Of a stretch of 64,000 bases of DNA, positions 20,870 to 61,012 are shown in pieces. Each line of letters starts with the position of its first letter. Position 1 is the stretch's first letter. The position numbers were made by a program, and so were the translations under genes. Location of the stretch: IMG/VR virus record IMGVR_UViG_3300009164_000039; one strand, written 5' to 3'. The stretch is from a virus. The notes beneath the pieces were generated by a model that saw only the letters and a program-made list of their open reading frames with translations, was not told the origin of the DNA and made no database searches.

Positions 20870-21199
20870 ATGAAATTTGATATTACATTTATTAATCCGG
20901 TAGGTAATCCAGAAACATACGTTGCTATTGAGGCTGAAAACGAACAAGCGGCTCGAGAAATGAAAGACAGCTTGTTGACAGCAGCCGGATCATTTTGGCC
21001 AGTTGATCAATGGACCATTGCATCAGTGGGACCCACACCAACTGAAACTCCGCCTGCTGATCCAACTCTGATGCCAATGTATTACCCAACAACTGAGCCA
21101 GTTCTAACTCTTGAGCAAATGATGGCCAAGCTGACTGCAGATTCACAAAAGGCCGCGGCAGCCCAACTTGCCGCACAACAAGCAAACCCACCAACTTGA
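20870..21199 (+). CDS. Hypothetical protein (possible fibre assembly factor)
   Basis: 109-aa ORF with SD AAGGA, directly after a fibre-like gene. Confidence 0.6.
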   Translation: MKFDITFINPVGNPETYVAIEAENEQAAREMKDSLLTAAGSFWPVDQWTIASVGPTPTETPPADPTLMPMYYPTTEPVLTLEQMMAKLTADSQKAAAAQLAAQQANPPT

Positions 21200-21205
21200 C
21201 ATAGT

Positions 21206-21238
21206 TTTAAGATAGGGCACACTACTCTATCTTAAATA
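21206..21238 (+). promoter_or_regulatory. Hairpin overlapping a late promoter core at the structural/tailoring module junction
   Basis: TTTAAGATAG (21206-21215) pairs with CTATCTTAAA (21227-21236). TAAATA at 21233-21238, 4 nt before ATG 21243. Confidence 0.5.
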
Positions 21239-21242
21239 CTGT

Positions 21243-21563
21243 ATGGATGTCAATAAACTAAAAATTCAAGCTGATCAGGCATTTGATCGAGACACTGCAC
21301 GACTAGCACTAAAAGAAAAGATTGATGCACGACTGTGTGTGGCCATCAATGGCGGACTGTTTCGAGCCACGCCCGAACTCATTGCATTCCTCAGCACCTG
21401 GCCAATAGAAACTGTTTATCTCCAAGACATACACGATCAGCCCATTGAACTAGATCGTGTGCTTGCGCTGGCCCAGCTGAGCCAAGCATATCAATATGCC
21501 ATGAACTCCTGGCACGAAGAACACACTCAACAGCAAAAAATCAGGAAAGGTCGTCATGCGTGA
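21243..21563 (+). CDS. Hypothetical protein
   Basis: 106-aa ORF, first gene of a chain of overlapping ORFs running to 38040. Confidence 0.7.
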   Translation: MDVNKLKIQADQAFDRDTARLALKEKIDARLCVAINGGLFRATPELIAFLSTWPIETVYLQDIHDQPIELDRVLALAQLSQAYQYAMNSWHEEHTQQQKIRKGRHA

Positions 21564-22356
21564 TGGTGCTCTTGTATTTGCTCATGCCACCGCAGTAGAC
21601 TATCTGCAAATGGCTCAGGTTGCGGCTCGACTAGTACGCAGGCATTTGAACATGCCTGTGTGCCTGGTAACAGATGGTGATGTTGAGTCCACAGCATTTG
21701 ATCAAGTTGTGCATGTACCAAAACCCTTAGCAATGAATCAACGCAACTACTGGGTCAACGGTGTCAAAAAAACAGCACCCTGGTACAACAGTACCAGATC
21801 AATGGCGCTGGATCTGTCACCATGGGATCGCACACTGTTGATTGATGCAGATTACTTTGTGATGTCTGACCAATTGAAACTGCTACAAAAAACAAATCTA
21901 GGTTTTGTGTGTTATACAAATGCACATGACATTCGCGACAACAAACCAATTGATGTCAGTTGTGGCTATCGGCACATGGCCTGGGCCACAGTGTGTTGGT
22001 TTGATAGATCAGAGCATTCGCAAGGTGTGTTTGCCATGTGGAAGCACGTGGTAAAAAATTGGGCCTACTATAATCTTGCCAATGACTTTGGCAAACCGGG
22101 CTTGCGTAACGACCATGCGTTAACTATTGCATTAGAAACAATGAGCGGACATTCTGCCACGTATCCAACCATACCAGGATCAATGGCCACAGTTGTACCC
22201 GGTACACAACTGTATGATATTAGAGCAGATGGCACAGTGTTATTCAAAACACATGATAAATTTTCATTAATCAAAAATCAAGACTTGCACATGGTAGACA
22301 AACAGATTGCATGCGACTCGCAATGGTTAGAATTGTTAGAGGCAGTTCATGCGTGA
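21556..22356 (+). CDS. Glycosyltransferase, GT-A fold (GT8-like)
   Basis: DxD motif in 'RTLLIDADYFV'; 'RNDHALTIA' resembles the GT8 'DQ' region. Confidence 0.6.
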   Translation: MRDGALVFAHATAVDYLQMAQVAARLVRRHLNMPVCLVTDGDVESTAFDQVVHVPKPLAMNQRNYWVNGVKKTAPWYNSTRSMALDLSPWDRTLLIDADYFVMSDQLKLLQKTNLGFVCYTNAHDIRDNKPIDVSCGYRHMAWATVCWFDRSEHSQGVFAMWKHVVKNWAYYNLANDFGKPGLRNDHALTIALETMSGHSATYPTIPGSMATVVPGTQLYDIRADGTVLFKTHDKFSLIKNQDLHMVDKQIACDSQWLELLEAVHA

Positions 22357-23221
22357 GTTTGCAGGAGAGCAAGGCTACTTGACATTTGCACAAAACACTG
22401 ACACAGTTGACTATCTACGACTGGCATACGCACAAGCATTGAGTATCAAATGCACACAGAAGATCAACAGTTATGCAGTGATAGTTGATGCATACACAGC
22501 TGAACAAATACAACACTGCCATAGGAAAGTGTTTGACTACATCATAGTACTAGAGCAAGATGATGCCAAAGAACATGACTGGAAGCTGGCAAACGAATGG
22601 CAAGCATTTGATCTTACACCATTTAGAGAAACGGTCAAACTAGAATCCGACATATTGTTTACCAGGAACATTGACCATTGGTGGACAGGCATGCGATCAC
22701 AAGAAGTCACATTCACTACCTGCATACGCAACTATCGCGGCCAAGTAAGCAACAGTAGAGAATATAGAAGATTGTTTGATGAAAGCAATTTACCTGATAT
22801 CTATACCGGCATGTTTTATTTTAGACACAGTCAAACAGCACGTGATCTATTTAATGCAGCCGCCACAGTGTACCAGCAATGGCCCATGTTTAGGGACAGT
22901 GTGTTAACTAGATGCAATAGCAAACACGCCTCAACAGACGAAGCCTTTGCAGTAGCCGCCAAATTAATCGGTGTAGAACGTGTGACTAATCCTGCACTTG
23001 ATTATCCAAGTTTTGTGCATATGAAAGGTGCAGTCAATGGGTTGGGCGCAAATGACAAGTGGAATGAATTGTTGTTTCATCAATGGACAGATGAAATGGA
23101 TCTAAGCATTGAGTTTCTTCGCCAACAGTATCCAGTACACTATTATCAAAAAGATTTTGTCACAGATAAAACAATAGGTGCATATGAACAAAGATTATCC
23201 AAACTTAATAACAGCGTTTGA
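22349..23221 (+). CDS. Glycosyltransferase-like paralogue (GT8-like)
   Basis: 'DLTPFRETVKLESDILF' aligns with 'DLSPWDRTLLIDADYFV' of the upstream gene; 'TDEAFAVA'. Confidence 0.55.
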   Translation: MREFAGEQGYLTFAQNTDTVDYLRLAYAQALSIKCTQKINSYAVIVDAYTAEQIQHCHRKVFDYIIVLEQDDAKEHDWKLANEWQAFDLTPFRETVKLESDILFTRNIDHWWTGMRSQEVTFTTCIRNYRGQVSNSREYRRLFDESNLPDIYTGMFYFRHSQTARDLFNAAATVYQQWPMFRDSVLTRCNSKHASTDEAFAVAAKLIGVERVTNPALDYPSFVHMKGAVNGLGANDKWNELLFHQWTDEMDLSIEFLRQQYPVHYYQKDFVTDKTIGAYEQRLSKLNNSV

Positions 23222-23531
23222 ATCCTCAACATGGCAACCACCGGTACCTGAATATCGGGTGTACTATGACAAGTCTGGAACCATAACAACCAAAACAACA
23301 GCACCATTGATAGGTGACTATATTGTGGTGTCTAGAGAAATGTATGACAGCATTGTGATGCACACACAGTGGCATGTGATAAATGGACAAGTTGAAATAA
23401 GACCGGTTGTGGAAATCCCACGTCATATGTTACAATACACAGCTGAAGGCCCGTACCGATCACTGCCAGGAAATGCTATATTTTTGGTAGATGACGATTA
23501 TGCTGGCTCCACTGATAATTGGACAATATGA
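23184..23531 (+). CDS. Hypothetical protein
   Basis: ORF overlaps both neighbours in the operon; start could be GTG 23178 or ATG 23184. Confidence 0.6.
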   Translation: MNKDYPNLITAFESSTWQPPVPEYRVYYDKSGTITTKTTAPLIGDYIVVSREMYDSIVMHTQWHVINGQVEIRPVVEIPRHMLQYTAEGPYRSLPGNAIFLVDDDYAGSTDNWTI

Positions 23532-24418
23532 AAACTGTAGACATTGCAGACCTAGATGTAATTTTTCTAACCTACGACGAACCTCGCAGAGAAGAGTCAT
23601 GGGCCAAAATCAAAAACATGGTACCTTGGGCCAAGCGTGTGGATGGCATAAAAGGCAGTGATGCCGCACACAAAGCCGCAGGTGCGGCCAGCGATACAGA
23701 TCGCTTTATACTAATTGACGGCGACAATATTCCTGACCCAGAGTTCTTTAACAAACAAATCACACTGGATCCACATCATGAAAGATGTGTGTTGCGTTGG
23801 AGAGCAAGAAACGCCATCAACGGACTCATGTACGGCAATGGTGGACTCAGCTCGTGGACCAAAAGTTTTGTAGAAAGCATGCGCACACACGAAGCCACTG
23901 ATGGTCGTAATGAAACACTGGTGGAGTTTTGCTTTGAACCTGACTACTGGGCCATGCATGACTGCTACTCAACCACGTATCCTAATGCCAGTCCATTTCA
24001 GGCCTGGCGAGCAGGCTTCCGTGAAGGTGTTAAAATGTGTCTGGATCGCGGAGCAAGACCCAACTTGGACGAGTTTGAAAAACGTGCCCACAATCGTAAT
24101 CTTGATCATTTGACCATTTGGCAAAGTGTGGGTGCTGATGCAGAGAATGGCTTCTGGGCCATATACGGTGCTAGACGTGGCACACAAATGACCATGCTTA
24201 CAGACTGGGATTACACCCAGGTACAAGACTTTGATGAACTGGCAAAACTTTGGACTGTGTACCAAAATGACGGCCCTGACGAATGCACTGAAGTAGGCAA
24301 CATGCTACGCAAACGCCTGGGACTTAACATTGTGGATCTAGACCCCGAACCCAGTGCATTTTTCAAACATCACTACAAGTCAAATTTTGTCAATAGAGGA
24401 ATAATGAGTCGTGAGTAA
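23528..24418 (+). CDS. Glycosyltransferase-like protein (GT2-like fold)
   Basis: 'DVIFLTYDEP...RVDGIKG...AHKAA...RFILIDGDN' with DxD; ATGA-coupled to the upstream gene. Confidence 0.6.
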   Translation: MKTVDIADLDVIFLTYDEPRREESWAKIKNMVPWAKRVDGIKGSDAAHKAAGAASDTDRFILIDGDNIPDPEFFNKQITLDPHHERCVLRWRARNAINGLMYGNGGLSSWTKSFVESMRTHEATDGRNETLVEFCFEPDYWAMHDCYSTTYPNASPFQAWRAGFREGVKMCLDRGARPNLDEFEKRAHNRNLDHLTIWQSVGADAENGFWAIYGARRGTQMTMLTDWDYTQVQDFDELAKLWTVYQNDGPDECTEVGNMLRKRLGLNIVDLDPEPSAFFKHHYKSNFVNRGIMSRE

Positions 24419-25793
24419 AAGTGATTTCATGACAGCCGCAGAACAAATGCGCCACACACTAGGCGAAGGTCTTTGCTTGGCCAAATGGAAACAGGTTAGC
24501 TTGCACTTGCCCACAGGATTGAACAATTCATGCTATCATCCTCCACTACACAAGATTCCTGTGGAACTGCTAGCAGGCAATCCTGGCGCACTGCACAATA
24601 CTCCACATAAAAAAGCTCAGCGCAAGATCATGTTGAAACATGAACGTCCAGACGAGTGTAGTTACTGCTGGTCAGCAGAAGACAATGGACAACTCAGTGA
24701 CAGGCACTACAGGTCAGGCGAGGAGTGGGCCGCAGAGGATCTTGACAAGATATTGGCCTCAACCGGAGACGAAGATGCATTACCTAGCTATGTGGAAGTT
24801 AATTTTAATCATGCTTGTAATCTTAAATGTAGCTATTGCAGTCCGCAATTTAGTTCAAGCTGGGCCGCTGAAGTTGCACAACATGGCGGATTCCCTACGT
24901 CCAGCCCTCACAATAGTCCTGAGTATTTTACTGGTAGTCGTCGCCCTATTCCTGCCCGAGAACACAACCCCTACGTTGATACCTTCTGGGAATGGTGGCC
25001 AGAGCTGTACCCCAAGCTAAGACATTTTAGAATGACAGGTGGTGAGCCACTGATGGATCACAATACCTATCGTGTGTTTGAATACGTGCTGACCTTGCCG
25101 CATCCATTGTTGCATTTGGATGTGACCAGCAACTTCAGTGTGGAGCCTGTGTTGTTTGAAAAGTATCTTGGCTATGTCAAACAGTTATGCAACACACAGA
25201 TTGAACACTTCATGCAGTATGTGAGCCTGGACACCTGGGGCAGTCAAGCAGAGTACATACGCAATGGCATGGACTTTGTGAGAGTGTGTGACTATGTGGA
25301 ACGCTATTTAGAGGAAGTACCCAATCGCAACAGCCTTACGTTTATCATGACCATGAACAATCTCAGTGTCACGGGCATGCATGACATGCTGGATTGGATA
25401 CTGGAACTACGTGCCAAGTACAGTAAAACATATCAGCGTGTGTGGTTTGACACACCGTTGCTGAGACAACCACGTTGGCAAAGCCTGCAGATACTGCCGC
25501 CTGCGTATGCCAACAGAATGAAAATAAACCTAGAGTTCATGCGAGCACACCTAATCACAGATGATAGTTTTGTGGGATTCAAAGATTATGAAATACAGCG
25601 CATGGAACGAGACATTGCCTGGATGACTGAGCCACAAGACGCACAAGAAGTCAATCATGCACGTGCTGACTTCTATAGATTCTTCAACGAACACGACCGT
25701 AGACGCGGTACTAACTTTTTACAAACATTTCCAGAGATGAGCCATTTCTGGTGGGAATGCAAACATCATGCCGAAACTGAACAACGAAACTGA
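24411..25793 (+). CDS. Radical SAM protein with N-terminal twitch/SPASM-like domain (1 of 6)
   Basis: CNLKCSYC motif; 'TGGEPL'; N-terminal 'CLAKW...SCYHP...ECSYCW'. Confidence 0.9.
   Translation: MSKSDFMTAAEQMRHTLGEGLCLAKWKQVSLHLPTGLNNSCYHPPLHKIPVELLAGNPGALHNTPHKKAQRKIMLKHERPDECSYCWSAEDNGQLSDRHYRSGEEWAAEDLDKILASTGDEDALPSYVEVNFNHACNLKCSYCSPQFSSSWAAEVAQHGGFPTSSPHNSPEYFTGSRRPIPAREHNPYVDTFWEWWPELYPKLRHFRMTGGEPLMDHNTYRVFEYVLTLPHPLLHLDVTSNFSVEPVLFEKYLGYVKQLCNTQIEHFMQYVSLDTWGSQAEYIRNGMDFVRVCDYVERYLEEVPNRNSLTFIMTMNNLSVTGMHDMLDWILELRAKYSKTYQRVWFDTPLLRQPRWQSLQILPPAYANRMKINLEFMRAHLITDDSFVGFKDYEIQRMERDIAWMTEPQDAQEVNHARADFYRFFNEHDRRRGTNFLQTFPEMSHFWWECKHHAETEQRN
24775..25020 (+). CDS. Overprinted 81-aa two-TM membrane protein (+1 frame inside radical SAM gene 1)
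   Basis: GGAG at 24765-24768, 6 nt before ATG 24775. Hydrophobic segments 'LILIMLVILNVAIAV' and 'ALTIVLSILLVVVALFL'. Local switch of the host gene to T-ending codons. Confidence 0.55.
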   Translation: MHYLAMWKLILIMLVILNVAIAVRNLVQAGPLKLHNMADSLRPALTIVLSILLVVVALFLPENTTPTLIPSGNGGQSCTPS

Positions 25794-27123
25794 TATAGAA
25801 TTCAAACGCAGAGTGATTGACATCAAGTCAACCAGCTTCTGCGGAGCCAAATGGTACAATGCTACCATATGGTTGGGTAGTGGACAAACAACCAGCTGCC
25901 ACCACCCACCTGCACACTCAATTGACTTGCAAGAAATAAAAACCAATCCTGCCGCACTGCACAATACCACTCGTAAAAAAGCTGATCGTGAAATGATGCA
26001 AAAAGGTGAACGCCCAGCAGGCTGTGAATACTGCTGGAAGATAGAAGACATGGGCCCTGAGTCTGTCAGTGACCGTGTGTACAAAACTGTAATACATTCC
26101 GAGGAGGACCTAAATGTTGCATTTGCCAGACCCAGCTACACAGACTTCAACCTTCGCACGTTGGAAATTGCGTTTGACAGAACTTGTCAGTTCGCTTGTT
26201 CTTATTGCAACCCTGCTTTTAGTAGCACATGGGTTAAGGACATTGGTAATAACGGGCCATACACAGGATTGGTATCTGACGGCAGGAACCATTTTACTCA
26301 CGCTCATGATAGTAGTCAACTGTATAAATTCAATGAAGTTAATCCGTACGTGGAAGCATTCTTCCAGTGGTGGGAAACAGATCTCCACCAGACACTAACA
26401 GAGCTTCGCATCACCGGAGGCGAGCCACTCATGTCAGGCTACACCTGGCAGCTGATTGACTGGTTCAAAGCCAATCAAGGCAAGAGCCATACCAAACTGG
26501 CCATCAACAGCAATCTTGGCATGGAGCCGGTCAAGATGCTGGATTTTATTCGGCGTGTGGAAGGTATTCCGCATCTGGAAATCTACACCAGCAACGAAGC
26601 ACTGGGCGCACAAGCAGAGTATATTCGTGACGGATTGAATTACCGGCAATGGCTCAGCAACATGGAGATGTTGATCAATTCAGGCGCAGTAAATCAAATG
26701 CATGTGATGTGTACAGTCAATGCATTGTGTCTGGAAAGCCTGCCTGAATTTTTAGATGAATTGGTTGTGTTGAAGAAAAAGTACAGCAGAGACTTTCCTA
26801 ACTTCACGTTGAACATCTTGCGTTTTCCTAGTTTTCAAAGTCCACTGGTATTACCATATGAGATTAGACAAAAGCATGCAGACCGCCTGGCACAGTTTTT
26901 GGTACGCCACAAAGGACAAAACTACTTGCATGAGCATGAGATAAACCACGTGGAACGTCTAGTAAAGTATTTGCTTGAAGTAGATACACCTCATGCAGAA
27001 GCATTTGAAATGCCTAAATTGTTGAATGACTTCCGACAGTTTTATATCCAATATGATCAGCGCCGCGGAAAAAACTTTGTAAATACATTCCCGGCTCTCA
27101 AGGATTGGTATGAAACACTCTAA
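25768..27123 (+). CDS. Radical SAM protein with N-terminal twitch-like domain (2 of 6)
   Basis: CQFACSYC; 'ITGGEPL'; N-terminal 'FCGAKW...SCHHP...GCEYCW'; close paralogue of 24411..25793. Confidence 0.9.
   Translation: MPKLNNETDIEFKRRVIDIKSTSFCGAKWYNATIWLGSGQTTSCHHPPAHSIDLQEIKTNPAALHNTTRKKADREMMQKGERPAGCEYCWKIEDMGPESVSDRVYKTVIHSEEDLNVAFARPSYTDFNLRTLEIAFDRTCQFACSYCNPAFSSTWVKDIGNNGPYTGLVSDGRNHFTHAHDSSQLYKFNEVNPYVEAFFQWWETDLHQTLTELRITGGEPLMSGYTWQLIDWFKANQGKSHTKLAINSNLGMEPVKMLDFIRRVEGIPHLEIYTSNEALGAQAEYIRDGLNYRQWLSNMEMLINSGAVNQMHVMCTVNALCLESLPEFLDELVVLKKKYSRDFPNFTLNILRFPSFQSPLVLPYEIRQKHADRLAQFLVRHKGQNYLHEHEINHVERLVKYLLEVDTPHAEAFEMPKLLNDFRQFYIQYDQRRGKNFVNTFPALKDWYETL
26114..26398 (+). CDS. Overprinted 94-aa two-TM membrane protein (+1 frame inside radical SAM gene 2)
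   Basis: GAGGAGG at 26101-26107, 6 nt before ATG 26114, which follows an in-frame TAA. TM-like 'LVSSLVLIATLLLVAHGL' and 'YLTAGTILLTLMIVVNCI'. Confidence 0.6.
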   Translation: MLHLPDPATQTSTFARWKLRLTELVSSLVLIATLLLVAHGLRTLVITGHTQDWYLTAGTILLTLMIVVNCINSMKLIRTWKHSSSGGKQISTRH

Positions 27124-28324
27124 GACATTTTGCATATTGCCATGGATACATCTTCATGCATTCCCTGATGGCCGTGCGTATCCTTGTTGTATGGGAGAAT
27201 ATCACTCACCCATTGGCGATCTTAAAACACACACAATGGAGCAGGTGTGGAATCAAGCGCCACTAGCTACCATGCGAAAGAACATGCTACAGAATGTCAA
27301 GTCCAAAGAGTGTGTCAAATGCTATGAGCTAGAAGAAAATGGTTTTGTCGGCATGCGACAAAGCATGAACCGTGCGTTTGCACATCACATGCCATTGGCA
27401 GATCAAACACTTCCTGATGGCACACTGCCTGACTTTCGACTACGCTACTATGACATTAGATTTAGTAATCTGTGTAATTTCCGTTGCCGCAGTTGTGGCA
27501 GTGTGTTTTCCAGCAACTGGTATGATGACGAAGTTGCCGCACATGGTCAAGTACAGCATCCCAAGATCATGTTTGCTGGCCAACACAAACAAGACATGTG
27601 GGAGCAAATGCAACCGCATATACCACATCTAGAACAAGTGTACTTTGCAGGCGGCGAACCCTTGATCATGGAAGAACATTATCGTGTGCTAAAAGAACTA
27701 GTACAGAGAGAAATGTTTGATGTCAGACTGGTATACAACACCAACTTTAGTGAATTAGATTTCAAAGATGAAAGTGTACTGGAGTTATGGAAACTGTTTA
27801 AGAATGTCAGCGTTGGTGCTAGTCTAGACGCCAGCGGCACACGAGCAGAGTACATTCGCAAAGGCACAGTATGGCACAAGATTGTACACAATAGAGAACG
27901 CATGTTGTCTGTGTGCCCTCAAGTTGACTTCTATATAAGTAGTACCGTGGGCATACTAAATGTATGGCACTTGCCAGACTTTCATCGTGAATGGGTTGAC
28001 TTGGGATTGATACGCCCGCAAGATTTCAACATCAACATGTTACAATCACCTGAATGGCAACGTGCAAATCATCTGTCACCGGAGTTGAAACAACAAGTGA
28101 AAGAACGCATACACAATCACCTTGAGTGGCTTGGTCCATTGGATCACATGAATCGTGCAACCAATGGTTATCGGAGTATTATAAAGTTTATTGATCAACC
28201 TGCTGATGCAGATCAACTAAAAGAGTTTTTTAGAGAAACTGATCAATTTGATCAAATACGCAATGAGAGTTTTGATGCTACCTTTCCTGAACTGACTGGA
28301 TTGAGAGACCATGCTACCAAATAA
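27110..28324 (+). CDS. Radical SAM protein with N-terminal twitch domain (3 of 6)
   Basis: 'FCILPW.H...DGRAYPCC...IGDL...ECVKC', then CNFRCRSC and 'FAGGEPL'. Confidence 0.9.
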   Translation: MKHSKTFCILPWIHLHAFPDGRAYPCCMGEYHSPIGDLKTHTMEQVWNQAPLATMRKNMLQNVKSKECVKCYELEENGFVGMRQSMNRAFAHHMPLADQTLPDGTLPDFRLRYYDIRFSNLCNFRCRSCGSVFSSNWYDDEVAAHGQVQHPKIMFAGQHKQDMWEQMQPHIPHLEQVYFAGGEPLIMEEHYRVLKELVQREMFDVRLVYNTNFSELDFKDESVLELWKLFKNVSVGASLDASGTRAEYIRKGTVWHKIVHNRERMLSVCPQVDFYISSTVGILNVWHLPDFHREWVDLGLIRPQDFNINMLQSPEWQRANHLSPELKQQVKERIHNHLEWLGPLDHMNRATNGYRSIIKFIDQPADADQLKEFFRETDQFDQIRNESFDATFPELTGLRDHATK

Positions 28325-29525
28325 CAATATATGTGTGCTACCGTGGATGAGCATAGAAGTAACCCCAATGGGTAACAGTCGCCCGTGTTGTTTGGCCATT
28401 GATGAAATACCAGACAACACTGGTAAATCCTACGACCTTACCGCAGTGCCTATTCGTGAAGTATATCACAGCAAATACATGCAGGATCTAAGGCAACAGT
28501 TTCGTGCAGGAGAAAAACCCAGCACATGCACACGATGCTGGACAGAAGAATCTGCAGGACGTACCAGCAAACGTATGAACATGTTGGCCAAATTCAACAA
28601 TGATATCCAATCAATTGAATGGGACACAGACACCCCTGAACAATTATGGTTCTTGGATCTTAAACTAGGCAACATCTGTAATCTCAAATGTCGTATCTGT
28701 GGATCCTGGAGCAGTAGTAAATGGGCACAAGAAGAACTAGACTACTACCCAACAGCCACTAGAGAAGAACGCAAAAAACATTCAGCGTATGTATGGCTAC
28801 GTCAGGGTCAGTGGCCACGTGAAAGCATTGACTTTTGGAACAACATTGATCAAGTGCTGCCTGGTGTGCGCTACTATGAATTTACCGGTGGCGAACCATT
28901 CTTGATTCAAGAACATTTTGATTTGTTACAACGCACAGTAGATCAAGGCTATGCATATCTTGTGGATGTACACTACAACACCAATGGCACACAGTATCCA
29001 GAAGCCGCAGTGGAGATGTGGAAAAAGTTCAAGCATGTGAACATTGCATTCAGCATTGACGATCTTGGCGCACGATTTGAATATCAGCGTTATGGCGCCA
29101 ACTGGGCAGAAGTGGAACAAAATCTAGACCGTTACTTAGAGTTAAGCAAAACACACACCAACATCACGCTACAAATGTGTATAACTGCAAATATACAAAA
29201 CGTATTGTACTTGCCTGAAGTCATGGACCATGTGTGGGCAAAAGGTTTTCGTGACGTATACATCAACATGTTACATGATCCAATTCAACTCAACATCAAG
29301 CAAATGACTCCAGTGGCGATTGAACTGGTATGTAACAGACTAAATCAAGTTCCGACCAGCAACAGATTCTATCGTGATTTCCAACAGTTAATAACGGTGA
29401 TACAAACAGGTACTGGTAGTGATGGTCAAGAGTTTTGCAAAACTATCAAACAAGGTGACGTGTATCGCAAACAAAATTTTGCTGACCATCACCCAGACAT
29501 AGCAAAGGCCATGGGATATGAATAA
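28311..29525 (+). CDS. Radical SAM protein with N-terminal twitch domain (4 of 6)
   Basis: 'ICVLPW...RPCC...CTRCW', then CNLKCRIC and 'FTGGEPF'. Confidence 0.9.
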   Translation: MLPNNNICVLPWMSIEVTPMGNSRPCCLAIDEIPDNTGKSYDLTAVPIREVYHSKYMQDLRQQFRAGEKPSTCTRCWTEESAGRTSKRMNMLAKFNNDIQSIEWDTDTPEQLWFLDLKLGNICNLKCRICGSWSSSKWAQEELDYYPTATREERKKHSAYVWLRQGQWPRESIDFWNNIDQVLPGVRYYEFTGGEPFLIQEHFDLLQRTVDQGYAYLVDVHYNTNGTQYPEAAVEMWKKFKHVNIAFSIDDLGARFEYQRYGANWAEVEQNLDRYLELSKTHTNITLQMCITANIQNVLYLPEVMDHVWAKGFRDVYINMLHDPIQLNIKQMTPVAIELVCNRLNQVPTSNRFYRDFQQLITVIQTGTGSDGQEFCKTIKQGDVYRKQNFADHHPDIAKAMGYE

Positions 29526-30675
29526 AGTTATCCCGTTGGTTAATGTTAGTGCATTGCAAGCCCTGACGCCCGCACCTCTTGGTCGCGCAGAGGTTGACTC
29601 TGACTACATGACACGGTATATACAAACTGGAATGGATTTTAACAAGGATCTTGGACTAGCAGGCAAATATTGTTATCACCCATTTAACACAGTCACGATA
29701 GACCATCGAGGTCGTTGCTATGTATGCACCTGTCAGGCATGGTTACCAATCAGCGTAGGTAACATTTTAGATTTTAATTCGCTGAGTGAAATTGTTCACA
29801 GCTCACGTGCTAGAGAGATACAACGAAGTATCGTAGATGGCAGTTATCGTTACTGTGACAATAAAACTTGCGGGTTATTAATCAGCGACGCAATGGAAAC
29901 TAGAATTGAGCACAAACCAGACACTGTGAATTGGATCAATTTCTGTATCGATGACAGTTGCAACTTACAGTGTCCTAGCTGTCGCACAGATTTAATATTT
30001 CATAAACAAGGTCCAGAATTTGATCTACGTATGAAAATATCACAGCATGTGAGCAAGCTGATCAGCGAACACAATCATTTTTTACGATTTACACTAAGCA
30101 ACGATGGGGATCCATTTGCTAGTCATGTGTACAGAAACCTAATGACAACTATTGCGCCACAACTGGTCAATCAGCTGGAGATTGAAATAGTAACTAACGG
30201 CATATTAATGAAGTCACATTGGCACGAAATTGAAAACATATACCCTAACCTCACACTAATCAAAGTCAGTTTTGATGCTGCCACCGAACAAACATACAAC
30301 AAAACACGATGCGGCGGCAGTTGGAACAAAGTAACTGAAAGCACTAGATTTGTAGCTGATTGGCTGGCTCAACGCAAAGCACAGCATCTCAATGCATATA
30401 CTAGATTGGTAGCTAATTTTGTAGTGCAACAAACAAACTATCATGAGATGATTGACTTTGTAACACTGTGCAATTCGTTGGGTGTTGATCAGATCTTGTT
30501 TCAAAAAGTAACTAACTGGAATACGTGGATTGATGCCAACGGCACAGATCAGTACAGCGCACATGCAGTATGGCAACAGTCGCATCCTGAATATCACAAG
30601 CTGAAAGAAATACTAAAAGATCCTGTGTTTCAACAGCACAATGTTAAACTAACTAACCTAGCGGATCTACTATGA
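29518..30675 (+). CDS. Radical SAM protein with N-terminal twitch domain (5 of 6), divergent
   Basis: 'YCYHPF...GRCYVCTC...GNIL...YCDNKTC', then CNLQCPSC; the GGE motif is replaced by 'NDGDPF'. Confidence 0.85.
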   Translation: MNKVIPLVNVSALQALTPAPLGRAEVDSDYMTRYIQTGMDFNKDLGLAGKYCYHPFNTVTIDHRGRCYVCTCQAWLPISVGNILDFNSLSEIVHSSRAREIQRSIVDGSYRYCDNKTCGLLISDAMETRIEHKPDTVNWINFCIDDSCNLQCPSCRTDLIFHKQGPEFDLRMKISQHVSKLISEHNHFLRFTLSNDGDPFASHVYRNLMTTIAPQLVNQLEIEIVTNGILMKSHWHEIENIYPNLTLIKVSFDAATEQTYNKTRCGGSWNKVTESTRFVADWLAQRKAQHLNAYTRLVANFVVQQTNYHEMIDFVTLCNSLGVDQILFQKVTNWNTWIDANGTDQYSAHAVWQQSHPEYHKLKEILKDPVFQQHNVKLTNLADLL

Positions 30676-31961
30676 ACAAACCTGATTCGTTATGCTTGGC
30701 TCCTTGGACACACACATATCTTAGTCCGCAGACTGAGCGCCGCATGTGTTGTGCAAGTCGCGAGCCTGCACAAAACTTTCAACAGTATATTGACACCAGC
30801 GCCGGTTCTGGCAAGTATATACCTATCACTCTGGACGAACATTGGAACGGTGACCACATGCGCTCCGTACGAAAACGCATGCTGTCCGGCGAAACATTAC
30901 CCGAGTGCGAAGTATGTAATGATAAACTGTTGAATACCTCTGTGTATAGAGATTACTTCACGCACTTGTTTGCACACAAACTTGACCAAGTACATGCCAG
31001 TACAGATGACACCGGGCACACTACAATGCAACCGATCAGCTGGGACTATAGATTTAGTAATCTTTGTAATTTCAAATGTCGCATGTGTGGAGACATGTTG
31101 AGCAGTGCATGGGAAAGCGAGCAACGTGTACATGGCATGATAGATTGGAACAATCCAAAGAACAACTGGATGAAGCCAGTCATACGCGATGAAATACATC
31201 AGTTTCAAACCACGCAGGTTGAACATGAGTTCAGTCAGGCAGTTGAAGAACATCGTGTTGAGGAGATATATTGGGTGGGTGGCGAACCCTTGATGTACGA
31301 ACAACATTGGAAGTACATGAAAAGAATAATTGAATTAGGGGACGGACCAAATGTCTATGCAAGATATAATACAAATCTCAGCCGTGTTGATTATCGCGGT
31401 GTCAATCTTTATCGGGATATTTTATCTGGGTTACGGGATTGGCAAATCTGCGCATCGCTCGACGGAACAGGTAAAATTGGTGAGTACATTAGATCAGGTC
31501 TCGACTTCGATGCTTGGCTTGAGAACTTCGCTCAAGGAGTTGCGATTGCGACTAATCCTAGACAGATGCGAATCGACTACACCCTTACCCTGCCAGGAAT
31601 GTTTGAGGTTGAACGGATTGAACGACTGTCCGCAACCTACGGAGTACAAGTTCTGGCGAAGGTAGTTTTTAGTTTCAGTCCGGACATAGTTATGTCACCT
31701 TTAGCCCTACCTCGGGACATGTTACACTCTTGGGTAGATGAAATACTTTCTGTGGTGAAGACCGACTCGTTAAAGGATATCTTGGTTCAGCTGAAAACTA
31801 GACCTACGTTTGCGGAACAGTGGCCCGACCAATATCAAACAGCACTGCGCCGTGGTAAAGACCGTGTGTTGAAATTAGAAAGCATACGAGACAATCCTAT
31901 CACAATGGCAGAGATATTGAGTGAACGATCGGATGTATTGCACTGGTGGAATAACATATGA
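30672..31961 (+). CDS. Radical SAM protein with N-terminal twitch domain (6 of 6)
   Basis: 'LCLAPW.H...RRMCC...ECEVC', then CNFKCRMC and 'WVGGEPL'. Confidence 0.9.
   Translation: MNKPDSLCLAPWTHTYLSPQTERRMCCASREPAQNFQQYIDTSAGSGKYIPITLDEHWNGDHMRSVRKRMLSGETLPECEVCNDKLLNTSVYRDYFTHLFAHKLDQVHASTDDTGHTTMQPISWDYRFSNLCNFKCRMCGDMLSSAWESEQRVHGMIDWNNPKNNWMKPVIRDEIHQFQTTQVEHEFSQAVEEHRVEEIYWVGGEPLMYEQHWKYMKRIIELGDGPNVYARYNTNLSRVDYRGVNLYRDILSGLRDWQICASLDGTGKIGEYIRSGLDFDAWLENFAQGVAIATNPRQMRIDYTLTLPGMFEVERIERLSATYGVQVLAKVVFSFSPDIVMSPLALPRDMLHSWVDEILSVVKTDSLKDILVQLKTRPTFAEQWPDQYQTALRRGKDRVLKLESIRDNPITMAEILSERSDVLHWWNNI
31351..31665 (+). CDS. Overprinted 104-aa TM + coiled-coil protein (+1 frame inside radical SAM gene 6), i-spanin-like architecture
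   Basis: AGGGGA about 8-9 nt before ATG 31351. N-terminal TM 'ISAVLIIAVSIFIGIFYLGYGIG'. 4-3 heptad L43/L47/V50/M54/L57/L61/L64/L68. Four Cys in the tail. Confidence 0.55.
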   Translation: MSMQDIIQISAVLIIAVSIFIGIFYLGYGIGKSAHRSTEQVKLVSTLDQVSTSMLGLRTSLKELRLRLILDRCESTTPLPCQECLRLNGLNDCPQPTEYKFWRR

Positions 31962-32719
31962 TATTATTAAGTTCTGGCGATAGCTTTACATATGGCAACG
32001 AGCTCAGTGATGACAACCCTGCACGTGCTAGTAACAACACATGGTCGGCGAACCTAGCAAAACATTTTGGGTTTGAGCACCAGTGTGTGGCCAAAGGCGG
32101 CGCCGGCAACGACTATATTTCTAGATCACTCATAACACAGGCCAATGAACTTCGTAAAAAAAGCAAACAGTTTGCAGTAGCGGTAATGTGGACCTATCCT
32201 GGACGCATTGAATTAAAAGTTCAGTCCGAGTGGCACCAACTAAACGATTATGTATTTTGGGATTCGACTGAAAAACTACAAGCACAGTGGCCCGATAAAG
32301 GTGAAAAATTTTATGCATCAATACTAGACAGAATTCAAAAAGACCGAGAAGCAAATCGATTGGATTTGTTCAGAGACTATATGAAATTTACGGTGTTAAC
32401 TGGTGACTATGCAATAGTAAAATCTTATCAAAGTATATTTGTTACCGCACAATATCTAATGCATCATGAAATTCCTTTCTTTTTTGTAAATGCAGTTGAC
32501 GAGGCAAACATCACTGGAAATTACATACCTCAGGACAGTTTGCCTTACCTGGACAGCATTGACCAGCAAGACTGGATGCCTGTTCCTAGTTTCTATTCCT
32601 GGGCAAAAGAAAATAATTATAAATTTGGGTCAGCACACCCATTGGATCGAGCACACACAGATTACGCTAAACTGATACTAGCTACAGGATTGGTAGAAAC
32701 AAAATGGCAATTAAAGTAG
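31958..32719 (+). CDS. SGNH/GDSL-like hydrolase or acyltransferase
   Basis: Block I 'SGDSFTYG', block II 'AKGGAGN', C-terminal 'HP...H'. Confidence 0.6.
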   Translation: MILLSSGDSFTYGNELSDDNPARASNNTWSANLAKHFGFEHQCVAKGGAGNDYISRSLITQANELRKKSKQFAVAVMWTYPGRIELKVQSEWHQLNDYVFWDSTEKLQAQWPDKGEKFYASILDRIQKDREANRLDLFRDYMKFTVLTGDYAIVKSYQSIFVTAQYLMHHEIPFFFVNAVDEANITGNYIPQDSLPYLDSIDQQDWMPVPSFYSWAKENNYKFGSAHPLDRAHTDYAKLILATGLVETKWQLK

Positions 32720-33798
32720 TATTACGAAACCCATTGGATCAGCAAGATCTAATAGACTATGACATTGTGCCCGATGACACATTGTTGGCACATGACTGGC
32801 AACAGGCACTAAAAGAACTGTTAGTGCAAGGTCGCATGCTGGAAAAGAACTTTTGTTTTCTCGGCTTTCCTGGCACTGCACGTACACTTGATTACATCTG
32901 CAAAGAATTAAACGAATGCGTGTACGATGTCAATGCTATGGATTGGCAGTCAGTTGGACTTGCACCGTATATAATTGAAGAGTGGTTCACACCTGACTCA
33001 GTTAGATTTGGTTTAGAATATCCCTGTGAGCTAACCGATACCAGCCTAGGATTATCAGTCAAACACGAAGTAATGAACAAACTGCACAATCATTTTGAGA
33101 GACTTCAAGGCACTGTATGGTCACCTAGTGAGTATTATACTCAGGCCACTCCAACTGTTAAGTATGCAATTAGACAACTCAACACACTGTGCCATGAAAT
33201 TGAATCTCTGGTGCTGAGCCAACGCAAGGCATATCGTTTGCCAGAATGGGTACGCCCAAGCCAAATTACTACGTTTATCAGCGCACCAAGATACGATCTT
33301 AAAGATCGGCATCGTGAAGGATTTGTTACCAATGGATATGACAGAAAATTTGGACATGTGTACATGCACTGGGCACAAATTGGCAAAACACTGTTTGAAG
33401 TATTTCGTGATGAGCATGCACCAGAACTAACTGATACTGTATGTGAAGCAATCACTCAATTGAAATACTATTCCGGTGAATTTGACATTGAATGGGGACG
33501 AGATGTAGTACGTACAGGCGACTTTCCGTGGCACGTGGAAGAACAGGATCGTTTTGAAAAATGGTTGATACAAAACAACATAGATCCAAAAAATCCTGCA
33601 ATGAGCTCAGGATATTTGCCATTGGGACAGGTAGAATTACAACAGAGTTTTGGCACAACCGATATTGGCACCATTTGGCAAATACTCAGCACACACCTGG
33701 ATATATACAGTATCGAGGTAGACGGAGTTGTTCAAACATATGATTACTGTTGGAGCGATACTGACTACAAGCAGTCGCAGATCAGGAGACTACTATGA
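32704..33798 (+). CDS. Hypothetical protein (364 aa)
   Basis: Long ORF coupled to both neighbours; no motif recognised. Confidence 0.75.
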   Translation: MAIKVVLRNPLDQQDLIDYDIVPDDTLLAHDWQQALKELLVQGRMLEKNFCFLGFPGTARTLDYICKELNECVYDVNAMDWQSVGLAPYIIEEWFTPDSVRFGLEYPCELTDTSLGLSVKHEVMNKLHNHFERLQGTVWSPSEYYTQATPTVKYAIRQLNTLCHEIESLVLSQRKAYRLPEWVRPSQITTFISAPRYDLKDRHREGFVTNGYDRKFGHVYMHWAQIGKTLFEVFRDEHAPELTDTVCEAITQLKYYSGEFDIEWGRDVVRTGDFPWHVEEQDRFEKWLIQNNIDPKNPAMSSGYLPLGQVELQQSFGTTDIGTIWQILSTHLDIYSIEVDGVVQTYDYCWSDTDYKQSQIRRLL

Positions 33799-33893
33799 GT
33801 TGGCTTAAAAAAATATACAACAGAATTAAAATGGAAATTGCTTATCGCAAGCGATTAAAAGAGTTGCGTAAACGAGATCCATTTATCTACTGA
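33795..33893 (+). CDS. 32-aa basic peptide MSWLKKIYNRIKMEIAYRKRLKELRKRDPFIY (not in the ORF track)
   Basis: SD AGGAGA at 33784-33789; ATGA overlap with the upstream stop; TGA at 33891-33893, 1 nt before the next ATG. Confidence 0.7.
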   Translation: MSWLKKIYNRIKMEIAYRKRLKELRKRDPFIY

Positions 33894-33894
33894 C

Positions 33895-34587
33895 ATGAAA
33901 AAAATACTTGTTCTAGCCTGTAGTAGCGGATTGGGCGTCGAATGCGAAGATGTAATCAATCATTGCTGGCCCAACATACTAGGAGACCTTACTAACACCG
34001 CAGTAACCAATGCCTCTGAAGCTGGCGGTAGCAATGACATGATGTATCGCAAAGCACTGTCAATGACTGCAACTGAATCGTATGACCTGGTATTGATTGC
34101 ATGGACAAACATTGATCGCATGGAAGTGTATTTTAACGAAGAGATTGTGTCTAATAGATTACCTGACGTACTAATCAGTGAAAAATTTCCTCGTGTGCAA
34201 GGACCTGGGCCAGTCAGTGTGTCTCATCATTGGAGTGACTTGCCTTGGATTGAAAAATACTATGGCATGCACTATAATGAACGTTACTTACTAGAGCGAT
34301 GGTTGCACCAAGCAATCACACTTCAAGAATATTTCAAAGCCAAAAAACAGCCATTTGCTTACATATCAAACTTTGGAAACACTCAGTATCTAAAAAATCA
34401 TACAGACATTCCTATGTTAAAGATGCTGGATGTAAAATCTTGGATTGGTAACTGGCCTGGGTCAACTTTACGCGACTGGGGTGCACCAATTGGCGTACAC
34501 AAATATGGTCATTTTACGTTAGACGCACATAAATTTATTGCAGAAAAAATACATGAGCATATTAGGAATCGCGGCTGGCTTTCATGA
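33895..34587 (+). CDS. Divergent SGNH-like protein
   Basis: 'LVLACSSGLG', 'NASEAGGSN', 'VLIAWTNIDRME', C-terminal 'GHF...AH'; same layout as 31958..32719. Confidence 0.5.
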   Translation: MKKILVLACSSGLGVECEDVINHCWPNILGDLTNTAVTNASEAGGSNDMMYRKALSMTATESYDLVLIAWTNIDRMEVYFNEEIVSNRLPDVLISEKFPRVQGPGPVSVSHHWSDLPWIEKYYGMHYNERYLLERWLHQAITLQEYFKAKKQPFAYISNFGNTQYLKNHTDIPMLKMLDVKSWIGNWPGSTLRDWGAPIGVHKYGHFTLDAHKFIAEKIHEHIRNRGWLS

Positions 34588-36034
34588 TGCCGCACTAGCG
34601 GTAATTGACAAGCATGGGGACATTGTATTTGCTGGACACAGTGAGCGTTACAGCAAAATCAAACACGACAAAAATTTATCGCCAGGCTTGATTGCCGAAG
34701 TATGCAAATTTGATATACATGAAATAGCATATTATGAACGTCCTTGGGCACAACAGTTGCGTAGATTGTACACCGGCGAAGGAGTAGAGTGGAACAAGCT
34801 CACAGTCCGGCAGATATTAAAAAAACAAATTAACGAGTTCAGTGCATTCTCTGGACCAGTAGTAGCATATCCGCATCATCTGAGTCATGCGGCAGCAGGA
34901 TTTCAAACAAGCCCATTTACCCGTGCCACAGTGGTTGTGATAGACGCTGTAGGTGAATGGGACACAATAACCATCTGGGGCGCAGAATACGATCGCAATG
35001 GACACGCACAGTACAAGAAGTTATGGCAACAAGGTTACCCGCATAGTATAGGATTGTTCTACAGTGCAATGACCCAGCGAGTAGGGTTGAAGCCCCTGGA
35101 CGAAGAATACATTTTGATGGGCATGGCAGCGTATGGTGAGCGTGGCTTTGGTGACCTATTAAAAATGGACATGATAGAATCAGAATTTGACATTCGATTC
35201 AAACACAATCTACACACTGGTATAGATAAAAAATATCTAGCCTACATCAGTGACTTTGATATAGCTGCCGGCGCACAAGATCTTGTGGAAACACTCATAC
35301 TCAATGTTATGCTACGTGCTAAGAAGTTTGGGTGGAGTAGCAATCTGGTGTACGGTGGAGGTGTTGCGCTCAACTGTGCCGCCAATAGATTTTTAGGAGA
35401 ATATTTTGATAACATTTGGATTATGCCTTGTCCTGGTGATGCTGGTTCTAGTCTGGGGGCCGCCGCTGTTAGTTTCCGTGGTTGTATTAATTGGACTGAT
35501 GCTTGTCTTGGGCATGATATACCTGGCGACTATCCTGTTAATGATGCCGTGGCTGCTCTTTTGCGTGGTGATATTATTGGTGTGGCGAGCGGTCGAGCCG
35601 AGTTCGGCCCGAGAGCGTTGGGAAACAGAAGTCTCCTCGCAGACCCAAGAGGAACAGAAATCAAAGACAAAGTAAATGAAATCAAACGTAGACAAAAGTT
35701 TAGACCCTTTGCACCCGTTGTATTGGAAGAGATGGCTGATCAGTATTTTACTATGCCTCGCGGGTGGGATCGCAGTCGGTACATGCAGTCAGTCGCTGAC
35801 TGTAGGCATCCTGAGTTATTTCCTGCTATTGTTCACGCTGACGGAACTAGTCGTGTTCAGACCGTACCGAAAGATGGAAGCGGAATTAGAGAGCTCCTTG
35901 AAAAATGGTTCGTGTTAACTGATTGTCCTATGTTGCTAAACACCAGCCTAAACATACGTGGCGAACCTATGGTCAATGATCGTGCTGACGCAGACCGCTT
36001 TGAAAAGTTATATGGCATAAAGGTCTACAGTTAA
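34553..36034 (+). CDS. O-carbamoyltransferase, NodU/CmcH/TobZ family
   Basis: 'GFHDAA', 'HHLSHAA', 'VIDAVGE', 'EYILMGMAAYG', 'GRAEFGPRALGNRSLLADP', 'FRPFAP', 'HADGTSRVQTV', 'LLNTSLN'. Confidence 0.95.
   Translation: MSILGIAAGFHDAALAVIDKHGDIVFAGHSERYSKIKHDKNLSPGLIAEVCKFDIHEIAYYERPWAQQLRRLYTGEGVEWNKLTVRQILKKQINEFSAFSGPVVAYPHHLSHAAAGFQTSPFTRATVVVIDAVGEWDTITIWGAEYDRNGHAQYKKLWQQGYPHSIGLFYSAMTQRVGLKPLDEEYILMGMAAYGERGFGDLLKMDMIESEFDIRFKHNLHTGIDKKYLAYISDFDIAAGAQDLVETLILNVMLRAKKFGWSSNLVYGGGVALNCAANRFLGEYFDNIWIMPCPGDAGSSLGAAAVSFRGCINWTDACLGHDIPGDYPVNDAVAALLRGDIIGVASGRAEFGPRALGNRSLLADPRGTEIKDKVNEIKRRQKFRPFAPVVLEEMADQYFTMPRGWDRSRYMQSVADCRHPELFPAIVHADGTSRVQTVPKDGSGIRELLEKWFVLTDCPMLLNTSLNIRGEPMVNDRADADRFEKLYGIKVYS
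35406..35675 (+). CDS. Overprinted 89-aa multi-TM protein (+1 frame inside the carbamoyltransferase), holin-like architecture
   Basis: AGGAGA at 35395-35400, 5 nt before TTG 35406. First 60 residues contain no charged amino acid; charged C-terminal tail. Confidence 0.6.
   Translation: MITFGLCLVLVMLVLVWGPPLLVSVVVLIGLMLVLGMIYLATILLMMPWLLFCVVILLVWRAVEPSSARERWETEVSSQTQEEQKSKTK
35676..35918 (+). CDS. Overprinted 80-aa two-TM protein coupled to 35406..35675
   Basis: TAA (35673-35675) is directly followed by ATG (35676). TM-like 'WLISILLCLAGGIAVG' and 'LTVGILSYFLLLFTLTELVVF'. Confidence 0.5.
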   Translation: MKSNVDKSLDPLHPLYWKRWLISILLCLAGGIAVGTCSQSLTVGILSYFLLLFTLTELVVFRPYRKMEAELESSLKNGSC

Positions 36035-57458: not shown

Positions 57459-57842
57459 TCAAGAGATTTCACTGCGACCATTACCTAGATCTTTTCGATT
57501 CACGCCACGTGGGTTCATGGCTTCGTATTGTTCCCACGTTTCCAAAGCTACGTTTTTGCACACATCCTGGAACCAACGGTCGATAATCTGTTCATCATCT
57601 CGGCCAGCATAACCAGACTTGATCAGTTGCGCAATAAAGAACTCGTTCCAGTCCAGTTCAAATGCACCTTGACCAATGTTGTCTGCATCCAGTTCAATGC
57701 CCACAATGTTCACATAAGGTTTGCCTGCTTTGGTAGCTATCTCTTTTGGTGACAGTGTTTTCTTCACAGGTGCTTTTTTAGCCGCTGTTTTTTTTGCCGG
57801 AGCTGGTTCGGCTTCAACTGGTTTTGGTTTTTTAGTTGCCAT
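57459..57842 (-). CDS. Hypothetical protein with K/A-rich N-terminus
   Basis: ATG 57842, TAATG-coupled to queE. Confidence 0.7.
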   Translation of the reverse strand: MATKKPKPVEAEPAPAKKTAAKKAPVKKTLSPKEIATKAGKPYVNIVGIELDADNIGQGAFELDWNEFFIAQLIKSGYAGRDDEQIIDRWFQDVCKNVALETWEQYEAMNPRGVNRKDLGNGRSEIS

Positions 57843-60820: not shown

Positions 60821-60841
60821 TTGAATCTCCTGATTGAAAGT

Positions 60842-61012
60842 TTACCAATGATGAATTACGCCAGCCACAATAAAGCAGTTGGTCAGTACATAGCATAACA
60901 CAATTACTGTACGAATGCAAGCAATTCGGTCTGCTTCAGCATCCGAATCGCCTGTTTTTTCGCCCAAACTTTTTGCCCAAAGGCGCCAAATTTTACGCAA
61001 ATAGATCTTCAT
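60842..61012 (-). CDS. 56-aa single-TM membrane protein
   Basis: ATG 61012; 'WRLWAKSLGEK...EAD.IA.IRT.I...Y.LTN.FIVAGVI.HW'. Confidence 0.6.
   Translation of the reverse strand: MKIYLRKIWRLWAKSLGEKTGDSDAEADRIACIRTVIVLCYVLTNCFIVAGVIHHW

Follow-up and report, generated by a model that had tools for sequence, protein, structure and literature searches.

Radical S-adenosylmethionine (SAM) enzymes with an auxiliary SPASM or twitch domain catalyze diverse reactions: BtrN oxidizes its substrate, and other twitch and SPASM enzymes epimerize, dehydrate, decarboxylate, or cross-link theirs. In mycobacteriophages, phage-encoded glycosyltransferases whose genes lie beside structural genes glycosylate the virions. 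Here we analyze six tandem radical SAM genes, R1-R6, found in the virus record IMGVR_UViG_3300009164_000039 of the IMG/VR database, a stretch of 64,000 nucleotides that is referred to below, at its full length, as the window. By sequence, their products are intact radical SAM enzymes under selection, with an auxiliary-cluster module at the N-terminus. The array belongs to an operon of about 17 kb that is conserved, encodes no protein with a membrane-like segment, and comes after the tail-fiber genes of a giant phage. SPASM and twitch domains have been described as C-terminal, and some megacluster members, without structures, have conserved cysteines on the N-terminal side (PMC9477430). An earlier note on this DNA had likewise given the C-terminal position as the normal one.

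The six open reading frames (ORFs) that the earlier note placed at 24411-31961 are all present there on the plus strand: R1 (24411-25793, 460 aa, with a GTG start), R2 (25768-27123, 451 aa), R3 (27110-28324, 404 aa), R4 (28311-29525, 404 aa), R5 (29518-30675, 385 aa), and R6 (30672-31961, 429 aa). Neighboring ORFs overlap by 4-26 nt at each junction, R1 shares 8 nt at its start with the upstream gene, and the end of R6 overlaps the downstream gene too. As there are overlaps at every junction, including both flanks, the block R1-R6 reads as one translationally coupled unit. The CxxxCxxC motifs quoted in the note occur in all six ORFs, and in all six proteins the auxiliary-cluster module is N-terminal of the core. 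The 'CC' element of the reported N-terminal pattern stands in part: its second cysteine is the conserved one, and R1 and R2 have a single cysteine at this place.

The reference for such enzymes is NCBIfam NF033640 (N_Twi_rSAM, 'twitch domain-containing radical SAM protein', cut-off 170 bits). R3 is the top family-model match of the array (404.3 bits), followed by R4 (329.6 bits), R1 (320.1 bits), R2 (301.3 bits), and R6 (286.7 bits), all over the full model length. The E-values of 1e-85 to 1e-121 place the array far beyond chance. Thus membership in the N-terminal-twitch family, claimed earlier for the whole array, applies to five proteins (287-404 bits) and fails for R5, which scores 28.9 bits with this model and has TIGR04317 as its top match (59 bits). 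Aligned to the family profile by hhalign, R5 nevertheless matches across both the N-terminal cysteine region and the core (probability 93%, E 2.7e-7), and we regard it as a divergent relative with the same predicted layout, outside NF033640. At the N-terminus, the Pfam SPASM model scores above its gathering threshold in R3 (residues 8-71), R4 (8-77), and R5 (52-114), and slightly under it in R6.

The conserved positions were mapped in an alignment of 61 paralogs and orthologs, using R3 numbering. Invariant are C8, C27, C68, and C71 in the N-terminal part and C122, C126, and C129 of the radical SAM motif, as well as G181-G-E-P184, R56, R83, S134, N212, S238, and R250. The four N-terminal cysteines are consistent with one fully ligated auxiliary cluster, and all six array proteins carry the residues for the SAM-binding [4Fe-4S] cluster together with four cysteines for one auxiliary cluster. 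R1, R2, R3, R4, and R6 share with NF033640 the N-terminal four-cysteine module, CxxxCxxC, and GGEP, whereas five phage subfamilies in fixed order, each conserved separately, are not found in the family description.

The array proteins do not group with housekeeping enzymes, an outcome that the note had named as refuting: they score 13-35 bits with the MoaA model (cut-off 284) and 13-17 bits with the NrdG model (cut-off 131). The named peptide maturase models give 12-37 bits against cut-offs of 265-850, the MftC and PqqE models give 16-27 bits, and the QueE and viperin models score far under their cut-offs. A literature search returned no paper naming NF033640 or describing an N-terminal SPASM/twitch enzyme, and a search on radical SAM, twitch, and phage returned unrelated papers only. 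NF033640 is a catalogued yet unstudied family for which we found no assigned reaction. In this respect the earlier statement of a recognized family without a reaction agrees with our literature and structure searches, which found neither a reaction nor a solved structure.

The structure of R3 was predicted with AlphaFold2 on the 61-sequence alignment, with a predicted local distance difference test score (pLDDT) of 95.1 and a predicted template-modeling score (pTM) of 0.91. In the model, the N-terminal module occupies approximately residues 8-75: a beta-hairpin (14-24) separates C8 from C27, C68xxC71 is part of a helical stretch (43-99), and the partial barrel starts at about residue 113. A twitch module, as reportedly defined by Grell, Goldman, and Drennan, consists of a cysteine, a hairpin, a cysteine, a helix, and a CxxC motif. 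The modeled N-terminal module of R3 has this order, but it stands ahead of the barrel. BtrN, BlsE, anSME, SkfB, and CteB resemble the array enzymes in the partial TIM-barrel core and in one Cys/hairpin/Cys/helix/CxxC module; in these enzymes the module comes after the barrel, whereas in the array enzymes it comes before.

VIA comparison of the R3 core gave BlsE (Z 12.6), anSME (12.5), CteB (12.5), SkfB (12.4), and viperin (11.7), with alignments of 204-226 residues (218-226 for the first four) at a root-mean-square deviation of 3.8-4.8 that cover R3 residues 88-370, that is, the core only. DesII (10.5) and AprD4 (8.3) are also among the fold matches listed, and BtrN is not. Foldseek matched the core of the model to SkfB (E 2.7e-6). 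Since the top VIA rows are tied, the fold sets R3 among the SPASM/twitch group and says nothing about the substrate. Compared with the canonical SPASM/twitch subgroup (SFLD subgroup 17, RadicalSAM.org Megacluster-1-1), the modeled R3 agrees in core fold and differs in domain position, the module preceding the barrel. Sequence searches of the PDB with R3 and R5 gave nothing significant.

Related viral loci were collected by a profile scan of IMG/VR, in which at least 596 encoding stretches were confirmed; the best 80 loci were kept, and orthologs were called at 35% identity or more. All 80 loci have R2 and R3 orthologs, 76 have R1, 75 have R4, and 75 have R6 (at 45-79% identity), most missing orthologs being due to contig ends. 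The gene order is near-invariant: two tail-fiber genes, gtA, gtB, gtC, R1, R2, R3, R4, R6, and d364, then optionally d253 and d230, then a carbamoyltransferase gene and d668; a marine subgroup has the order R3-R6-R4. CxxxCxxC, the N-terminal cysteine pattern, and GGEP are kept in 386/386 orthologs, so that the degenerate copies suggested as a second refuting outcome did not appear. R5-like genes occur in seven of the 80 loci, with varying place and strand; R5 is an accessory gene. Profile scanning succeeded where a single-protein scan of genome contigs gave no match, and a nucleotide search of the array and of the 38-62 kb region against 50,697 phage records also gave none. Contigs L001, L002, L004, and L006, binned as Legionellales, Verrucomicrobia, Betaproteobacteria, and Rickettsiales metagenome-assembled genomes (MAGs), contain the whole module and tail fibers. 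Because these matches (52-55% identity) repeat the phage gene order including the tail fibers, they are probably mis-binned phage contigs.

In the phylogenetic tree, R1 (support 97), R2, R4, and R6 (100) form clades with support of 97-100, R1 and R2 being sisters. R3 and R6 cluster together with bacterial R3-like genes, a long branch setting R6 apart from the R3-like group, and the R4 clade takes in a copy from Bdellovibrionota that comes after an R3-like gene (support 98). The array paralogs have a mutual identity of only 19-33%. This low identity, together with separate conserved orthogroups, indicates an old set of five different enzymes with an accessory sixth. Recent tandem duplication is excluded by the same identities and by the own conserved clade of each paralog. 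The term 'paralogue array' used previously suggests a local expansion, which these old, separately kept orthogroups do not bear out. In three complete loci, R3 and R4 are a single ORF of 846-851 aa (L014:9878-12433, L020:9875-12415, L021:5614-8169), and the same fusion is found in the cut locus L019:9911-12125; these fusions are a Rosetta-stone hint of joint action.

The wider family is large. A search with its profile gives 8,336 clusters, formed at 50% identity, at E<=1e-30 and 15,888 at E<=1e-10, and R3 has more than 7,900 homologs at E<=1e-10 among 8,000 candidates scored, mostly metagenomic with about 60% identity. Double and triple enzyme fusions account for about 35 of the top 150 cluster representatives. 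Among 20 over-long family members, the sole recognizable extra domains are TPR repeats in six and Sel1 repeats in one (P0163, P0192, P0202, P0123, P0152, P0137, and P0264 being the TPR- or Sel1-fused members). As these are protein-binding repeats, the fusions suggest that the enzymes have a protein partner or act on a macromolecule, and a purely nucleoside diphosphate (NDP)-sugar substrate is not favored given them.

The array is embedded in a block of genes on the same strand. Upstream of the block, at the beginning of the window, are an ORF of more than 3,700 aa and then several tail-fiber proteins identified by PHROG. The first gene of the block, s104 (21243-21557, +), encodes a small protein of about 104 aa without a family match; its end overlaps the start of gtA, and homologs with 39-46% identity were found by tblastn ahead of gtA in 56 of the 80 loci. 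Two GT8-like glycosyltransferase candidates follow. The product of gtA (21556-22356, +; 62 loci) is a glycogenin-like GT-A candidate with a conserved D97-x-D99 and a paralog of gtB (22349-23221, +; 63 loci), the two profiles matching in hhalign with probability 99.6% and E 8e-25. The gtB profile, built from 31 orthologs, matches glycogenin-1 at E 1.3e-4 (24.7 bits) over positions 4-111, the nucleotide-sugar half only, and Pfam gave no match to the single gtA and gtB sequences. The best-conserved flanking gene, gtC (23519-24418, +; 70 loci, 40-73% identity, invariant D67-G-D69-N), may encode a GT2-like transferase. This lead comes from a neighboring Atlas cluster auto-named 'Glycosyltransferase 2-like'.

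Downstream, d253 (31958-32719, +) encodes a possible SGNH/GDSL-like protein of the esterase or acyltransferase type. It had no HMM family match, and its alignment with d230 (33895-34587, +; Pfam DUF6071, E 1.5e-7), an SGNH-like paralog, and their orthologs contains invariant S9, G13, N51, H227, and H233 with the consensus GGDSFTYG; the top PDB profile match of this group is a GDSL-family protein (E 0.03). The gene d364 (32704-33798, +), conserved after R6 in 60 loci (33-64% identity), encodes a protein whose AlphaFold2 model (pLDDT 90.3) weakly resembles, at VIA Z 7-8.9, a cyclophilin-like barrel with an inserted helical bundle; Foldseek found no match to the model and Atlas returned nothing. 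Profiles of gtC, d364, and gtA gave nothing significant against PDB sequences. The gene for a NodU/CmcH-type carbamoyltransferase (34538-36034, +; Pfam Carbam_trans_N E 2e-37, Carbam_trans_C E 4e-47; PHROG 'Nol-like carbamoyltransferase' E 2e-89), is found in at least 54 loci. In many loci it is followed by homologs of d668 (36034-38040, +), the last plus-strand gene of the block, which has no Pfam, PHROG, or NCBIfam match. None of the module proteins has a membrane-like hydrophobic segment, and no flippase, polymerase, protease, or exporter was named by Pfam, PHROG, and NCBIfam scans of the module, which together argue that the chemistry of the module is cytoplasmic.

Immediately ahead of the operon, at 21209-21236, is a perfect 8-bp inverted repeat (TAAGATAG...CTATCTTA). 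The last tail-fiber gene is followed by an ORF of 109 aa with a Pro/Thr-rich stretch (20870-21199, +), which lacks conservation among the related loci. A scan of 20-38.5 kb for sigma-70 promoters and terminators stayed at chance level.

A similar gene association occurs in bacteria. True bacterial homologs (30-33% identity) were found in Bdellovibrionota and Bacteroidota. One Bdellovibrionota MAG has 11 family members above the cut-off. One of its loci (L009:3260-18934) has the order rSAM-GT2-rSAM-GT2-rSAM (rSAM, radical SAM gene), followed by five N-twitch enzymes and then by two SGNH/GDSL genes; another (L096:5084-17694) encodes a carbamoyltransferase, two N-twitch enzymes, more radical SAM enzymes, an alcohol dehydrogenase (ADH)-like protein, a GT1 transferase, and an MBOAT protein. 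Both clusters suggest that the partnership of N-twitch enzymes with genes of the glycosyltransferase, carbamoyltransferase, and O-acyl type recurs outside phages, in this one genome. Family members are present in 31 of the 151 sampled Bdellovibrionota genomes, often several and often in tandem, and in 0/14 controls.

Among the 50,697 phage records, close relatives are found only in the Ralstonia jumbo phage RsoM2USA (MG752970). This phage carries a reduced module, split in two. In the first part, ORF353 (gtA-like, 26% identity), ORF352 (gtB-like, 30%), ORF350 (gtC-like, 41%), ORF349 (R1-like, 36%), and a second gtC-like gene, ORF348, come directly after ORF355, whose start resembles the tail fiber of the window. 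The second part contains a weakly SGNH-like ORF203, ORF202 (R2-like, 51%), the micro-gene described below, and ORF199 (carbamoyltransferase, 45%). All module genes of RsoM2USA are annotated as hypothetical proteins; the genome paper assigns ORFs 356, 359, and 361-364 to structural, tail, and baseplate functions and says nothing of radical SAM (PMC8504454). Four distant family members are present in each of the Vibrio phages K566 and K567. The carbohydrate context proposed in the earlier note is supported by the gene neighborhoods of the phages, of one Bdellovibrionota genome, and of a cultured jumbo phage.

A region of this kind has been seen before in pelagimyophages, where it comes after a giant VrlC-like protein and tail fibers and contains GT8 glycosyltransferases (PMC7029224). 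In that study the cassettes are mentioned in passing as variable content, its freshwater genomes lack the radical SAM genes, and the N-twitch family, its five orthogroups, and their conservation were not identified (PMC7029224).

We suggest, at about even confidence, that the module uses radical chemistry in the cytoplasm to tailor a glycan or glycoconjugate, perhaps one borne by virion proteins. The glycan part of this proposal rests on the GT8-like gtA and gtB, the carbamoyltransferase, and the SGNH-like signature adjoining the array, and the virion part on RsoM2USA, where gtA-gtB-gtC-R1 adjoins tail-fiber-like and annotated structural genes. In the suggested course of events, the two GT8-like transferases and the one probable GT2-like transferase would assemble a short glycan in the cytoplasm, where the likeliest acceptor is a protein of the virion or the tail fiber. 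Each radical SAM enzyme would then use the 5'-deoxyadenosyl radical to remove a hydrogen at one specific position of the glycoconjugate, and its twitch cluster would accept an electron or otherwise resolve the substrate radical. The outcome could be an oxidation, epimerization, dehydration, decarboxylation, or cross-link. R3 and R4 may act as a pair, and the carbamoyltransferase and SGNH-like proteins would afterwards add carbamoyl and acyl groups. A bolder version, in which the five N-twitch enzymes form a radical editing cascade that rewrites sugars already attached to virion proteins, is possible and on present evidence rather doubtful. The closest parallel, virion glycosylation in mycobacteriophages, resembles the module in that soluble glycosyltransferase genes lie beside tail or structural genes without export machinery; here they are joined by radical SAM enzymes, five to eight in number, as well as by a carbamoyltransferase and SGNH-like proteins.

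Several points weigh against glycan tailoring on virions. That the glycan sits on virion proteins and that it is the substrate of the radical SAM enzymes is what we infer, and late co-expression with the tail fibers we infer from strand and adjacency alone. The T4-type late promoter TATAAATA has a single match in the window (53713, -), at chance level, and none upstream of the block. The assignment of gtC as a transferase is weak, and that of d253 as SGNH is by motif only. In two Bacteroidota genomes the R3-like gene is alone, with no glycan genes nearby. Further, the TPR and Sel1 fusions (7/20) would suit a glycoprotein and, equally well, a substrate that is a protein or peptide, and the structural cores closest to the R3 model include peptide-modifying enzymes.

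The last two points suit a different scheme, in which the enzymes directly modify protein or peptide side chains in the manner of maturases of RiPPs (peptides made by the ribosome and then modified post-translationally), forming thioethers or C-C cross-links or epimerizing residues, and the glycosyltransferases act separately on the same target. The target could be the tail fiber or another structural protein, or a small peptide. In favor of this scheme are the nearest cores, among them anSME, which modifies proteins, and the two sactisynthases CteB and SkfB, the TPR and Sel1 repeats as sole domains found fused to family members, and a micro-gene of 32 codons (33795-33893, +) that fills the sole gap in the block and ends in ...RKRDPFIY, where the terminal DPFIY is invariant. 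The micro-gene overlaps the d364 stop with its start and ends one base ahead of d230. RsoM2USA has it, as do 66 of the 80 loci, and its end, ...LKELRKRDPFIY(K), hardly varies. In the last 16 codons, 15015 synonymous differences stand against 2892 nonsynonymous ones, and the invariant residues use 2-6 codons each. By this codon pattern the micro-gene is a real protein-coding gene under strong selection at the protein level.

The micro-gene recalls PqqA and MftA, the small precursor peptides of pyrroloquinoline quinone (PQQ) and mycofactocin; both systems combine such a peptide with a radical SAM/SPASM enzyme, and that of mycofactocin also includes a glycosyltransferase. The likeness lies in a tiny constrained peptide with a C-terminal aromatic motif amid radical SAM and glycosyltransferase genes. 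However, the peptide of the module co-occurs with the carbamoyltransferase rather than the radical SAM genes, and no MftB- or PqqD-like domain was found. The micro-gene is present in 60/60 loci with the carbamoyltransferase gene, and its stop overlaps the carbamoyltransferase start in 22 of these. Four loci, covered for at least 5 kb past R6, lack both genes and keep R1, R2, R3, R4, and R6. In addition, the micro-gene was not found in the Bdellovibrionota arrays. This pattern of co-occurrence excludes the micro-peptide as an obligate radical SAM substrate; perhaps the micro-protein partners the carbamoyltransferase or is acted on by it.

Other observations also speak against direct protein modification. 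Pfam gave only radical SAM and SPASM-type domains, hence no RiPP recognition element (RRE) was seen, and neither a co-occurring precursor peptide nor an RRE domain, the marks of RiPP radical SAM/SPASM maturase systems, was found with the array. The module scans contain no protease or exporter, and the neighbors that Pfam or NCBIfam named in the two Bdellovibrionota clusters are of the carbohydrate type, save the radical SAM genes and the ADH-like one. Taken together, we regard direct protein or peptide modification as unlikely.

The fold matches to BlsE and AprD4 lead in another direction. BtrN, BlsE, and AprD4 are characterized twitch enzymes that act on small glycosides, and on the other strand the array is adjoined by a cassette of a DesII-like gene, an aminotransferase, and a dehydratase. 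Accordingly, the module could make or remodel a small soluble compound, for example an unusual NDP-sugar, a cofactor, or a glycoside resembling the aminoglycosides, or else alter a host-envelope glycan precursor against superinfection, with no decoration of the virion. The host-envelope variant gains from the pelagimyophage study, which proposes that the glycosyltransferases of the region alter the host O-chain (PMC7029224). Against both variants, the module contains no membrane transferase, flippase, or polymerase, and two phage lineages far apart from each other both keep it directly after tail-fiber or structural genes. The TPR and Sel1 fusions suggest a macromolecular partner, and GT8 transferases of the glycogenin type can use proteins as acceptors. 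We therefore consider a small-molecule or envelope substrate quite unlikely, slightly more so than direct protein modification.

The opposite strand of the window encodes ThyA, dihydrofolate reductase (DHFR), a DegT aminotransferase, the DesII relative, an epimerase/dehydratase, and QueE/QueD-like proteins. As the earlier note had counted, the window contains eight radical SAM genes: the six of the array, the DesII relative (39097-40470, -; TIGR04426 343 bits, cut-off 450), and a divergent QueE-like gene (57842-58714, -; 45 bits, under all QueE cut-offs). Two ORFs at 60275-61499(-), near the QueE-like gene, have N-termini that are QueD-like by eye. The QueE-like and QueD-like genes on the minus strand suggest a 7-deazaguanine pathway. 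With ThyA, DHFR, and QueE/QueD-like genes in the same window, and one thymidine hypermodification pathway having a radical SAM step, the array might serve the hypermodification of phage DNA bases or nucleotide precursors. However, the nucleotide genes lie on the opposite strand with replication-type genes, whereas the array is on the tail-fiber strand; bacterial chromosomes have the same association beside MBOAT and SGNH O-acyltransferase-type genes; and scans of the module revealed neither a DNA-binding nor a nucleotide-kinase domain. A role in DNA modification is highly improbable.

Glycan or glycoconjugate tailoring thus remains the reading that we put forward, and the architecture of the enzymes has significance of its own. 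In every characterized SPASM or twitch enzyme the auxiliary domain lies on one side of the barrel, and in the N-twitch enzymes on the other. Five distinct NF033640 members are kept in fixed order behind the tail fibers by hundreds of large aquatic phages that are uncultured. An orphan family thereby becomes a testable system, of which the cultured phage RsoM2USA holds a reduced version. If the products decorate virions, the module would bear on host recognition and defense evasion in abundant freshwater and marine phages. If the editing cascade is true, a family of more than 8,000 sequence clusters would receive its first reactions, and a new kind of virion decoration would come to light in giant phages that abound in aquatic habitats, with a counterpart among the Bdellovibrionota, which are predators.

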